A stretch of 64,000 nt of DNA from Promethearchaeota archaeon (GTDB taxonomy: Archaea; Asgardarchaeota; Lokiarchaeia; Sigyniarchaeales; SOKP01): positions 64,001 through 128,000 of the forward strand of contig JAUVNS010000006.1 of assembly GCA_030599585.1 (NCBI GenBank), read 5' to 3'. How positions within the stretch are numbered: the stretch's first letter is position 1; the number at the start of each line of letters is the position of its first letter. Of the stretch, positions 36,006 to 38,772 are shown one piece after another. Below the pieces are notes generated by a model, which made no database searches, was not told the origin of the DNA, and saw only the letters and a list, made by a program, of their open reading frames with translations. A program made the translations under genes and the position numbers.

Positions 36006-37088
36006 ATGAGTATCGAAAATTTATTACTCGTGTTATCTACCTCTATAACGGGGACATTAGTAGCAATTGGTGGTATGATTACATTCATTTATGCGTTCAG
36101 AAGAAAAAATCGGCTTATTTTCTTATTTTCCGCAATGTGGTTAATGTATGCTATTTTTTGGTTTGTAGATGCGGCAGCTCATTATTTTTACTCAATACCA
36201 CTAATGGCCTTAGCGATTATTCCACAACTGATAGGAATTCCGTGTATTATCATTTTTATCGAACTTAGCAGAAAAGAGCATGTTAGCCCAATTAAAATTT
36301 CAATACTTATGATTATCGAAGCCTTAGTTTTTATTATAACTTTTTATGTACCTGATAATTGGGAGATCATTCCTGGATATGGAATTCATAACAAAGGCAT
36401 ACTTCGGATAGCGCAGATAATCTTCATCTTTTACTTCATGATTTTTTATTTTTTATGGAGTTTTCATACTTGGCGTAAGGCTCCTGCGGGTTTAAAACGC
36501 TTAACAAGCTATTTACTATTTGGGAGCACTATTTTTTCAATTGTTACAGGGGTAATGTATGCAATTGGGACATTCATAAAAACATTTAATGCCATAGGGT
36601 TCTTCATAAATGGGATAGGAGCGTTCATCACTATTTTAGTTATCTTAAAAGATTCCAGAATTATATATATCTTACCTTTTAAGGCTTATCGAATTTTAGT
36701 GGTTGACACTATAGCAAGCGTAGCCCTATTTAAATACGATTGGGCGAAAGCAGGAGAAGTTGAGGAAAATATCTTTACCATGATGATCCAAGCTATTGGT
36801 AGTGTTCTAGACGACATTTTAAAAAAAGGTGATGTCCAAGAAATCCAAATGGATCGGGCAATCCTTCTTATTAAACACAATAAAGAAAATAATATAGCAT
36901 CGGTTTTGATAGCCTCAAAATTTTCAAAATCGCTGAGATATGGATTGAAAAGGTTTGACGAAGAATTTGTTGGAAGATTTCAAAAAACTTTAGAAAGTTC
37001 AAGAAAAGTTAGTGATTTCGTCGGGGGTTCAAAAATAGTTGAACATGTATTCGATTTTGTTCCAAGTTATAAAAGTGAAATTATATAA
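36006..37088 (+). CDS. 7-TM membrane protein with a C-terminal cytoplasmic longin-like domain
   Basis: Seven hydrophobic segments, then a soluble ~135-aa domain with a beta-beta-alpha-beta-beta-beta-alpha-alpha pattern (YRILVVD..LFKYDW..IFTMMIQAI..IQMDRAILLI..SVLIA..LKRF...F). Confidence 0.8.
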   Translation: MSIENLLLVLSTSITGTLVAIGGMITFIYAFRRKNRLIFLFSAMWLMYAIFWFVDAAAHYFYSIPLMALAIIPQLIGIPCIIIFIELSRKEHVSPIKISILMIIEALVFIITFYVPDNWEIIPGYGIHNKGILRIAQIIFIFYFMIFYFLWSFHTWRKAPAGLKRLTSYLLFGSTIFSIVTGVMYAIGTFIKTFNAIGFFINGIGAFITILVILKDSRIIYILPFKAYRILVVDTIASVALFKYDWAKAGEVEENIFTMMIQAIGSVLDDILKKGDVQEIQMDRAILLIKHNKENNIASVLIASKFSKSLRYGLKRFDEEFVGRFQKTLESSRKVSDFVGGSKIVEHVFDFVPSYKSEII

Positions 37089-37110
37089 TCAAAAACATAT
37101 TTGAAAAGAG

Positions 37111-38193
37111 GTGAAAATGATTAGTTTTGATAATATTTTATTAGTTTCATCCGCATCAGCTGCAGGTGTGTTAAACATTATTGGATTTTTACTCTCATTC
37201 TCTTACGCGAAAAAAAGAAAAAATCGATTAGTGTATTTATTTTCAGCAAATTGGTTATTACAATCTTTTTTTTGGGGTTTAGACGCAGCTTCGCATCTTT
37301 TTTATTCACCCTTATTAATGGCTCTTGCAATAATACCGCAAGTCATTGGGGTTCCCTGCCTATTTATATTTATAGACCTCATTAAAAAAGAACGCGTGAG
37401 TTCATTTAAGATCACTATTGTCCTTCTAATTGAGATTACTCTGCTATACTTCACTTTTACGCCTGGAGGTATGCAAATTATACCTGATTATGGTATCCAT
37501 ATTGTTGGAACTCTTCGAATTGTCCAAATTATTTTCCTCTTTTACTATGTATTAACCTATTTTAGTTGGAGTTACCTCACTTGGAAAAGAGCTCCGAGGG
37601 AATTAAAGCAACTCGTTAACTTTTTATTGTTTGGTAGTATCCTTTTTTCGTTTGTAACGGCAACCTTGTACTTTTTAGGAACATTTATTAAAATATTCAA
37701 TTCTTTAGGGTTCATAACTCATAGCTTAGGAGCATTATTTACGATTATAGTTATATGGAAAGAACCTAAAGTCATTTATATACTTCCCTTTAAAGCCTAT
37801 AGACTTTTGGTTGTTGAGACGAATGCAGGTATTGGATTATTTAAACACGATTGGGCAAAACTGAGAGCTGTAGACGAGAATGTCTTTACTATGGTACTCC
37901 AAGCAGTGGGTAGCATTTTAGATGAATTATTAAAGAAAGGAGAAATACGGGAAATCAAATTGGATAGAGCAGTTCTTTTAATTCAACACAATAAAGGCTA
38001 TCCAGTTGCATCTGTTTTAGTTACCTCAAAATCATCTAAATCTTTGCGATATGGACTTAAGAAGTTCAATTCTCAGTTTATTGATGAATTCAAGTCTCAT
38101 TTTGGTGGATTGTATGAAGTTAGCAGATTTAAAAAGGCGAAATCGTTAGTGGAGGAATTTTTTGATTTCATACCTGATTATTTAGAAAACTAA
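37111..38193 (+). CDS. 7-TM + longin-like protein, tandem paralogue of 36006..37088
   Basis: Same length and colinear similarity (LMALAIIPQ, IYILPFKAYR, KKG..EI..DRA.LLI.HNK, SKSLRYGLK). Confidence 0.8.
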   Translation: MKMISFDNILLVSSASAAGVLNIIGFLLSFSYAKKRKNRLVYLFSANWLLQSFFWGLDAASHLFYSPLLMALAIIPQVIGVPCLFIFIDLIKKERVSSFKITIVLLIEITLLYFTFTPGGMQIIPDYGIHIVGTLRIVQIIFLFYYVLTYFSWSYLTWKRAPRELKQLVNFLLFGSILFSFVTATLYFLGTFIKIFNSLGFITHSLGALFTIIVIWKEPKVIYILPFKAYRLLVVETNAGIGLFKHDWAKLRAVDENVFTMVLQAVGSILDELLKKGEIREIKLDRAVLLIQHNKGYPVASVLVTSKSSKSLRYGLKKFNSQFIDEFKSHFGGLYEVSRFKKAKSLVEEFFDFIPDYLEN

Positions 38194-38220
38194 TCAATGA
38201 ATTTTGATTATGAAGTTCTT

Positions 38221-38772
38221 TTAAACTGGCATGTCTTTATATTTAACATATAGTTCATCAATAATCGTATTAAATGCGTTAATTACTCCTTGTCCCGATT
38301 TTGCTGAAGTCATAAAGTGTCCTAAGTATTTCTTTTCTTCAACAATTTTTTCGATAGCCAAAGTGTCTATCTTTTCCTCGTCTACCAAATCTACTTTATT
38401 ACCAAAAATTACCACAGGAATATCTCCGCAGTATTTTTCAATATCAGTTGCCCAGTTATGAATATGGTTAAAACTTTCTTTACCATGTTCATTATTTTCA
38501 AGGGTATACACAATTATTGCAGCAACACTATTGTTAAAAAATGAGGGTCGTAAGAAATTAAATGAATCTTGTCCTGCGATGTCCCAGAATAATAACTTTA
38601 TTTTGTCTCCATCGATTTTTCTATCAAATACAGAAAATTGAGCTCCGATTGTTTTGATGTATTCTTCTTTAAAATTATCGTTAGTGAACTTTTGGATTAG
38701 AGATGTCTTACCTACGGCACCATCTCCTATAACAGTAATCTTAAATCTAAATTTTTTGTTAGTTTCACTCAT
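38221..38772 (-). CDS. Rab-like small GTPase
   Basis: GDGAVGKT, TIGAQF, WDIAGQ, NKVD, SAK. Confidence 0.95.
   Translation of the reverse strand: MSETNKKFRFKITVIGDGAVGKTSLIQKFTNDNFKEEYIKTIGAQFSVFDRKIDGDKIKLLFWDIAGQDSFNFLRPSFFNNSVAAIIVYTLENNEHGKESFNHIHNWATDIEKYCGDIPVVIFGNKVDLVDEEKIDTLAIEKIVEEKKYLGHFMTSAKSGQGVINAFNTIIDELYVKYKDMPV

Follow-up and report, generated by a model that had tools for sequence, protein, structure and literature searches.

Tandem seven-transmembrane proteins with a longin tail encoded beside a Rab-like GTPase gene in a Loki-type Asgard archaeon

Two adjacent genes, hereafter A and B, in a 64,000-nucleotide stretch of DNA (the window) from a Loki-type Asgard archaeon with a GC content of ~33% encode membrane proteins in which a bundle of seven transmembrane (7TM) helices is followed by a cytoplasmic longin domain, and the pair converges on a gene for a Rab-like small GTPase. 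These proteins belong to a real, widespread and unannotated family of Asgard receptors with a genuine longin tail, whose architecture combines two known kinds of protein, 7TM sensors and longin platforms. We propose that in the subfamily defined by A and B the 7TM bundle senses, while the longin tail docks and regulates the neighbouring small GTPase at the membrane, a proposal that we regard as evenly poised between right and wrong.

An earlier note, made from the letters of the window, had described two 360-residue paralogues and a convergent GTPase gene 27 nucleotides away. Both open reading frames (ORFs) are indeed present (Table 1), their products are 55% identical over 355 residues (BLASTP, E 2e-144), and the stop codon of the GTPase gene lies 27 nucleotides from that of B. 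A and B are genuine genes rather than chance ORFs, since they have 159 homologues (55-95% identity) and their N-terminal domain alone recruits 575 clusters at 50% identity. The taxon labels of close homologues are Promethearchaeota or Lokiarchaeota. In the tree, the A clade stands apart from a broader one that includes B, and the five positions that are fixed differently in the A clade and in the rest all lie within the longin domain. The ORF finder placed the start of B at GTG 37111. A better candidate is ATG 37117, located 3' of GAGGTGA at 37108-37114, which would give a protein of 358 residues, inside the 356-358 range of B-type orthologues, and is likely to be the true start. The gap between A and B is 22-28 nucleotides depending on the start of B, and the two genes are very likely co-transcribed because only 28 nucleotides separate them if ATG 37117 is used. 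On the 5' side of A, an AT-rich gap of ~690 nucleotides (35314-36005) is devoid of ORFs of at least 80 residues.

The membrane part of A was defined by three lines of evidence. Kyte-Doolittle hydropathy detects seven hydrophobic segments inside residues 3-215, and an AlphaFold2 model built on 36 homologues (predicted local distance difference test, pLDDT, 85.5; predicted template modelling score, pTM, 0.78) displays seven long helices, with a beta-hairpin (residues 119-129) in the loop that joins the fourth and fifth transmembrane helices (TM4 and TM5) on the outer side. The third line is the distribution of positively charged residues. In 36 diverse family members, the mean number of K+R is 2.9, 1.8, 3.6 and 1.7 in the four predicted inner loops (sum ~10) and 0.03, 0.1, 0.75 and 0.25 in the N-terminus and outer loops (sum ~1.1), which by the positive-inside rule puts the N-terminus outside and the C-terminal domain inside. 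The expectation of seven helices and an inner C-terminus was thus borne out by hydropathy, model and charge alike.

Conservation in this bundle is unevenly distributed. Across the 36 family members the transmembrane helices diverge, and what is kept consists of P160 in the inner TM5-TM6 loop (W-R-x-A-P), G173, G205, the L-P-F linker that follows TM7 and the core of the longin domain. The transmembrane region of this broad alignment contains almost no conserved polar residue, and no conserved His, Asp or Ser. Within the A/B subfamily, little or no variation is seen in a set of polar residues (D55, H59, Y62, Y125, G126, H128, R134, Q137 and N195) located at the outer ends of the helices and in the hairpin, which would fit a subfamily-specific outer pocket.

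Among solved structures, human alkaline ceramidase 3 (ACER3) comes closest in fold to the bundle, with a Z score of 15.4 over 194 aligned residues (3.5 Å, 14% identity), and bundles resembling G protein-coupled receptors (GPCRs) come further down at Z ~13, together with an adiponectin receptor (Z 12.3). A Z of ~13-15 is flagged by the search tool as a level common for helical bundles, so that the caution of the earlier note, in which no homology to GPCRs was claimed, was well placed. A reading of the bundle as a hydrolase, prompted by the ACER3 match, was considered and rejected for want of conserved catalytic residues. The zinc site of the CREST, PAQR and alkaline ceramidase proteins, as in ACER3 and the adiponectin receptors, is made of three His plus Ser/Asp in TM2, TM3 and TM7. 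In the A/B subfamily TM7 contains no His, and H59 is the sole invariant transmembrane His. A Pfam scan of A, B and the 36 family members matched no family at E values up to 1, including 7tm, HisKA_7TM and 7TMR-DISM, and a sequence-profile search of the PDB with the 7TM alignment returned nothing meaningful.

The soluble tail is the most conserved part of the family. It had been expected to start at about 36675 in A and 37785 in B, and the boundaries found (~36651-36684 and ~37759-37795, respectively) enclose or adjoin these points closely. From residue 227 onwards, secondary structure assigned by DSSP follows the longin order beta-beta-alpha-beta-beta-beta-alpha-alpha in a three-layer sandwich, with the same elements in the full model and in a model of the tail alone: strands at 227-234 and 239-245, a helix at 251-271, strands at 278-281, 286-292 and 297-303, and helices at 308-331 and 341-348. 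The tail modelled alone on a diverse alignment reached a pLDDT of 84.5. When the tail of the full model was compared with solved structures, it matched synbindin/TRAPPC4 (Z 13.2), Sec22 (12.9), VAMP7 (12.8) and SRX, the longin domain of the signal recognition particle (SRP) receptor alpha subunit (11.8). A VIA search with the tail alone gave Sec22 (Z 13.3 over 122 aligned residues, 2.8 Å), VAMP7 (13.1), synbindin/TRAPPC4 (12.6), a CPLANE longin (11.5), SRX (11.2) and a Lokiarchaeota longin structure, 8yqg (10.6), followed at lower scores by Lst4 (9.6), a GATOR1 subunit of NPRL2/3 type (9.4) and Mon1-Ccz1 (8.7-8.9). Almost all of the best 50 VIA matches are longin domains or related roadblock platform domains. 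Matches to roadblock proteins rank lower, with ~100 residues aligned (MglB 9.3, MglC 8.8, MP1-p14 8.2), and no PAS or GAF domain occurs in the list of fold matches. Foldseek with the tail alone retrieved 19 chains at E values up to 1e-3, nearly all of them longins (VAMP7 8e-5, Ykt6 1e-4, Sec22b 2e-4, sedlin 4e-4), the remainder being a related roadblock-type chain. The longin-like character proposed in the earlier note is therefore sustained by whole-domain matches to solved longin domains that surpass those to roadblock domains, and the models of the tail identify it as a longin fold rather than as a roadblock, PAS or GAF domain. Each protein has one longin domain, residues 1-215 being membrane helices.

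An idea of the role of the membrane part came from the proteins in which it is found. A profile of the 7TM part alone was searched against 1.84 billion representatives and recruited 575 clusters at 50% identity, 453 of them at E values up to 1e-10; a longin domain is also present in 139 of the best 153 of the 575 clusters. In other architectures (Table 1) the same membrane module is joined to a histidine kinase, either through a longin domain, which then takes the place of a transducer between membrane and kinase, or through a PAS domain and with a terminal receiver, while in a single chain 7TM, longin and winged helix-turn-helix (wHTH) domains follow one another. Matches to P0375 in bacterial genomes cover only the kinase and receiver part, and are uninformative on the 7TM module. 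Since one input module is joined to alternative signalling outputs, the comparison of sequences identifies the 7TM part as a sensor input module. A possible kinship of this part with the prokaryotic HisKA_7TM module, raised in the earlier note, thus holds as regards sensor use and the histidine-kinase fusions of relatives, and fails as regards Pfam, where no HisKA_7TM match was obtained; in the kinase-fused relatives neither HisKA_7TM nor 7TMR-DISM was matched at E values up to 0.01, although HMMER filters may drop very weak matches.

The 7TM-longin family was encountered only in Asgard genomes and in metagenome proteins, its profile matching 143 of the 301 Asgard genomes sampled, which represent 42 of 70 genera; the highest number of matches in one genome is six. 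The genome under study has, besides A and B, a third member of 435 residues on contig 52. This genome encodes at least 30 proteins with a longin domain of the same sequence family, including TPR-longin proteins encoded in an island downstream of A and B. The sole contact with a described longin family came from one of these distant paralogues, on contig C1, which matched Intu_longin_1 below the cut-off (E 0.0015).

The neighbouring GTPase is a complete one. Its orthologues carry the NCBI name Rab family GTPase, and in its translation motifs G1-G5 are intact (GDGAVGKT, TIGAQF, WDIAGQD, GNKVD and TSAK), including the switch II glutamine. The translation ends in KYKDMPV and has neither a C-terminal cysteine, hence no prenylation motif, nor Gly2, so no lipid anchor is predicted.

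The earlier note took this GTPase to be the partner of the pair, and the claim holds in part: the linkage recurs with two classes of GTPase, but is at background level in 33 distant members of the family. Among 27 sampled genomes of the genus, eight have a close A/B pair (E < 1e-170), always in tandem, and the order 7TM-longin, 7TM-longin, convergent Rab-like GTPase and divergent wHTH-TPR gene is kept in all seven of the other genomes, at 69-95% identity. Many metagenome contigs, paired by their matching lengths, carry a 7TM-longin homologue together with an orthologue of the GTPase. In sister lineages, which fall in the broader clade, the loci are made of a PGA_cap-like gene (519-531 residues, its stop overlapping the next start in L083 and L085), one to three 7TM-longin genes, a Rag-type GTPase gene and a CoA-ligase gene. 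The Rag-type GTPase, of 296-321 residues with a roadblock-like tail and the motifs HKCD and TSVYD, is encoded on the same strand in four of the five sister loci. Orthologous receptors therefore adjoin two GTPase classes, Rab-like and Rag-type, in different lineages. Because there are 55 Ras-like ORFs in the 4.85 Mb of this genome, direct adjacency to a GTPase gene would be expected by chance in only a few percent of cases per gene. Six of the 32 proteins of this genome that have this longin domain, spread over four separate loci, are encoded at most 1.2 kb from a Ras-like GTPase gene, where our estimate of the chance expectation for these 32 proteins is ~1.

Several observations weigh against a partnership between tail and GTPase. 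The synteny within the genus comes from related genomes, and hence does not count as independent evidence, and the GTPase gene, on which the pair converges, is not in one operon with A and B. The Rag-type orthologue of this genome is located elsewhere, away from any 7TM-longin gene, and its retention there means that adjacency to the Rab-like gene could be a by-product of an island inserted beside the pair. Other subfamilies are paired with winged-helix genes instead of a GTPase gene, and enrichment of GTPases as a property of the whole family was rejected, since a Ras-like ORF occurs within 7 kb in 6 of 33 distant members, where the background density predicts ~5.6. As to the tail itself, no longin family was matched in Pfam by A, B or the 36 relatives at E values up to 1, and a profile search of the PDB with the longin alignment produced nothing relevant. 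The link to GTPase genes is thus real for the A/B subfamily only, and the gene neighbourhoods make a functional tie of that subfamily to small GTPases credible.

Binding was also approached by complex prediction, with the longin tails of A and B, the neighbouring GTPase (38221-38772) as the scored partner and three controls. The tails with the GTPase scored 0.37 versus 0.00 for the best of the controls, which is weak support, with at least 85% of contacts in agreement between prediction runs and a partner pLDDT of at least 81. Of 80 solved complexes 58 pass the mark, as do 2 of 110 mismatched pairs; at scores of at most 0.60 the passes come from 7 of the 80 solved complexes and from both of the passing mismatched pairs. 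Moreover, solved longin-GTPase complexes exist, and a pass may for that reason reflect model memory. The tails with the GTPase hence came out ahead of the controls but in a range of scores where passes were more often wrong than right, and the result shifts the odds for GTPase binding only slightly.

A more specific claim, that A and B form an obligate heterodimer, was not upheld: the sister lineages have one, two or three copies, and the single-copy forms must work without a paralogue. A and B may still associate as hetero-oligomers where both are present. Outside the A/B subfamily about one tenth of the matches listed form tandem pairs, and six of the seven multi-TM longin proteins identified in this genome sit in such pairs. 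Two of these pairs, other than A and B, are located at C1:89215-91657 and C24:92537-94812.

Taken together, these data can be accommodated in the following model. The seven-helix bundle, with its N-terminus outside, would sense a ligand or the state of the membrane, and the signal would pass through the inner TM5-TM6 loop (W-R-x-A-P) and the TM7 linker (I-L-P-F) into the longin domain. In the A/B subfamily, this domain would be a docking and regulating platform for the adjoining GTPase, probably as a dimer like other longin platforms. Docking would bring the switch of this GTPase, which itself lacks a lipid anchor, to the membrane, where it would come under the control of the receptor, and the nearby wHTH-TPR and TPR-longin proteins would be likely readers of the GTP switch. 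The effect on the GTPase could be exchange, hydrolysis or mere tethering: a putative guanine nucleotide exchange factor (GEF) activity is a more tentative proposal than docking and regulation as such, and the roles of a GTPase-activating protein (GAP), an effector or a tether would fit equally well. The fullest version of this model, in which a ligand-gated seven-helix receptor directly switches a Rab-like GTPase (Rag-type in the sister lineages) via its fused longin platform, is in our opinion unlikely.

Of the alternatives, the one that survives best holds that the output of A and B is not a GTPase at all, the tail pairing with TPR-longin proteins or acting on winged-helix regulators while the GTPase is incidental or active elsewhere in the island. 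We find this doubtful, yet it accounts for a number of observations. The 435-residue subfamily, which has an additional C-terminal stretch of ~80 residues (L076:2224-4287 on contig 52, and 10 loci among L045-L072), has in 10 loci a ~250-residue wHTH-like gene with weak Pfam HTH matches upstream on the same strand, mostly within ~70 bases and often at a distance of just a few; one relative (L079) joins 7TM, longin and wHTH in one chain; synteny with the pair is kept by the wHTH-TPR gene to the same extent as by the GTPase gene; the TPR-longin proteins of the island have the same longin sequence family; and the wider family has no GTPase enrichment. Against it stand the finding that two GTPase classes directly adjoin orthologous 7TM-longin genes in different lineages, and the sister loci that have a Rag-type GTPase gene and contain no wHTH gene. 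The result of complex prediction (0.37 versus 0.00) also speaks against it, if weakly, passes at or below 0.60 being more often wrong than right.

A second alternative, in which A and B are passive tethers akin to Ragulator, the 7TM part merely anchoring a longin platform for the anchor-less GTPase without sensing any ligand, appears improbable to us. It would explain why the GTPase has no lipid-anchor motif and why, in the family at large, conservation is poor in the transmembrane helices but not in the longin core. However, in relatives this 7TM module serves histidine kinases in the manner of a sensor input, the polar residues of the outer face vary little or not at all in the A/B subfamily, and one helix would suffice as an anchor. 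Finally, it is most improbable that the bundle works as an enzyme or a transporter, be it a hydrolase of the alkaline-ceramidase/PAQR kind or a permease, with a longin tail that merely regulates it. The matches to ACER3 and the adiponectin receptor that would favour this reading have Z scores common among helical bundles, no transmembrane His, Asp or Ser is conserved family-wide, even in the A/B subfamily H59 is the only invariant transmembrane His and TM7 has none, and the relatives carry signalling outputs.

If the longin tail of A and B does regulate a GTPase, its closest counterparts are the longin platforms of eukaryotes. These include the TRAPP core Bet5/Trs23 (TRAPPC1/C4) acting on Rab1, Mon1-Ccz1 acting on Rab7, SRX of the SRP receptor alpha acting on SRbeta, and the FLCN-FNIP and GATOR1 NPRL2/3 platforms acting on Rag GTPases. 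The tail has the same fold, with the same order of strands and helices, and a Rab-like or Rag-type GTPase gene adjoins. The eukaryotic platforms differ in being soluble or tethered via other subunits, whereas the A/B longin is single and C-terminal to a 7TM bundle; there is also no match at the level of sequence, and regulation of a GTPase is here a prediction. In the tri-longin Rab GEFs (Mon1-Ccz1, Fuzzy-Inturned and HPS1-HPS4) each subunit has three longins, versus one in A and B. We know of no eukaryotic longin regulator built as a 7TM-longin fusion. The MglB/MglA and Ragulator-Rag systems share a small alpha/beta platform beside a GTPase of the Ras superfamily, and the Rag-type GTPase of the sister lineages has a roadblock-like tail; the order of elements is that of a roadblock in these platforms, whereas the A/B domain has no N-terminal helix and has two C-terminal ones.

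On the membrane side, prokaryotic 7TM sensors (HisKA_7TM, 7TMR-DISM) share with the family a 7TM input with the N-terminus outside and a variable cytoplasmic output, kinases among them in the relatives of A and B. They differ in that the A/B family matches no Pfam model and its usual output is a longin, which to our knowledge is not an output domain of bacterial sensors. GPCRs also have seven helices, an outer N-terminus, an inner C-terminus and a similar bundle (Z ~13), and the proposed logic, in which a receptor controls a GTPase, is alike. Unlike them, A and B show no sequence similarity to GPCRs, no Pfam 7tm match and, in translation, neither a D/E-R-Y nor an N-P-x-x-Y motif; and whereas a heterotrimeric G protein meets the helix bundle, the putative partner of A and B is a monomeric GTPase of the Ras superfamily that would be met via the fused longin domain.

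Loki longin domains were reportedly counted by Klinger et al. in 2016 (MBE). No description of 7TM-longin proteins or of their GTPase neighbours was found in the accessible literature, including PMC10933270, PMC12962969, PMC4917890 and PMC13466386, and no paper in it names Asgard, longin and histidine kinase together. Longin domains named 'NPRL2-like longin' have been described as fused to two-component domains in Asgard genomes (Liu et al., 10.1101/2020.10.19.343400; later Nature 2021), which matches the 7TM-longin-kinase relatives, and these were thus partly anticipated; the accessible part of that text carries neither a 7TM fusion nor a link to GTPase neighbours (Liu et al., 10.1101/2020.10.19.343400). 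For the tail of A, the fold score of an NPRL2/3-type longin (Z 9.4) is lower than those of the SNARE- and TRAPP-type longins. It has been noted that genes for longin or roadblock proteins do not, in general, share operons with those for GTPases in Asgard archaea, so that genome layout is seldom helpful (Tran et al., 2024, PMC10933270).

Asgard archaea have dozens of Ras-superfamily GTPases together with longin and roadblock domains, and which regulator pairs with which GTPase, and what they do without endomembranes, is an open problem. The A/B locus and the sister loci offer matched sets of a receptor-like longin protein and a defined Rab-like or Rag-type GTPase. The kinase- and winged-helix-fused relatives show that in these archaea the longin domain serves membrane sensors quite generally as a tail that transduces the signal, which suggests that control of GTPases by longins began in signalling rather than in vesicle traffic. 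If the fullest version of the proposed model is true, A and B would represent a prokaryotic receptor-to-GTPase pathway, the same parts of which were later used by eukaryotes for Rab activation and for nutrient sensing by Rag at the lysosome.

Table 1. Coordinates of the A/B locus and its neighbours in the window, with loci of sister lineages and fused relatives
Feature	Coordinates or identifier	Strand	Description	Evidence
Gene A	36006..37088	+	360-residue 7TM-longin protein, A clade	ORF, AlphaFold2 model, 159 homologues, tree
Seven-helix membrane bundle of A	36012..36650	+	Residues 3-215, N-terminus outside	Hydropathy, model, positive-inside counts
Conserved linker and cytoplasmic longin domain of A	36651..37049	+	Linker K-D-x-x-I-I-Y-I-L-P-F; longin at residues 227-348; most conserved part of the family	
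Gene B	37111..38193	+	360-residue ORF, 7TM-longin paralogue of A	ORF, BLASTP, broader non-A clade
Cytoplasmic longin domain of B	37795..38160	+		Alignment with A; family C-domain profile, E 2e-47
Rab-like small GTPase	38221..38772	-	183 residues, convergent on B	Pfam Ras, E 1e-41
Tandem winged-helix and TPR protein	39019..40929	+	Divergent from the GTPase gene	Pfam HTH_34, HTH_45, TPR; synteny in L033-L039
TPR protein with terminal longin domain	40926..42644	-	Longin at residues 442-551	Pfam TPR; family C-domain profile, E 5e-8
Second Rab-like GTPase	43154..43714	-	Closest paralogue of the first	phmmer, E 4e-75; Pfam Ras, E 3e-38
Apparent operons of sister lineages	L083:2250-8309; L084:3356-7239; L085:3436-7132; L080:4776-8251			
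7TM + longin + HisKA + HATPase_c	P0386; L077:4774-6654; L078:4124-5998		L077 from the same family, L078 from the same genus	
7TM + PAS + HisKA + HATPase_c + REC	P0317, P0375			Matched over the full length in G288, an Asgard genome of the same order
7TM + longin + wHTH	L079:2458-4485		676 residues; C-terminal winged helix	HTH_24

Downstream of A and B, the island at 40926-55881 encodes TPR-longin paralogues with tails of the A/B longin family (E ~1e-8) and includes a second wHTH-TPR gene at 51870-53816. The second Rab-like GTPase gene has longin-bearing TPR genes at distances of 170 and 510 nucleotides.

Some relatives are of interest in their own right. The 7TM-longin-wHTH chain is a candidate membrane-bound one-component regulator. 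At L077:3165-8183, the 627-residue 7TM-longin-kinase is flanked by two genes for Gtr1/RagA-like GTPases (507 and 292 residues) and by a stand-alone receiver, bringing a two-component system and small GTPases together at one locus. Lastly, C24:97425-100423 holds the gene of a 760-residue protein whose N-terminal helix is signal-like and in which one transmembrane helix separates a large outer part from an inner longin domain; this single-pass longin protein is encoded 168 nucleotides from a Ras-like GTPase gene, and it has a 762-residue paralogue at C24:112114-114402.

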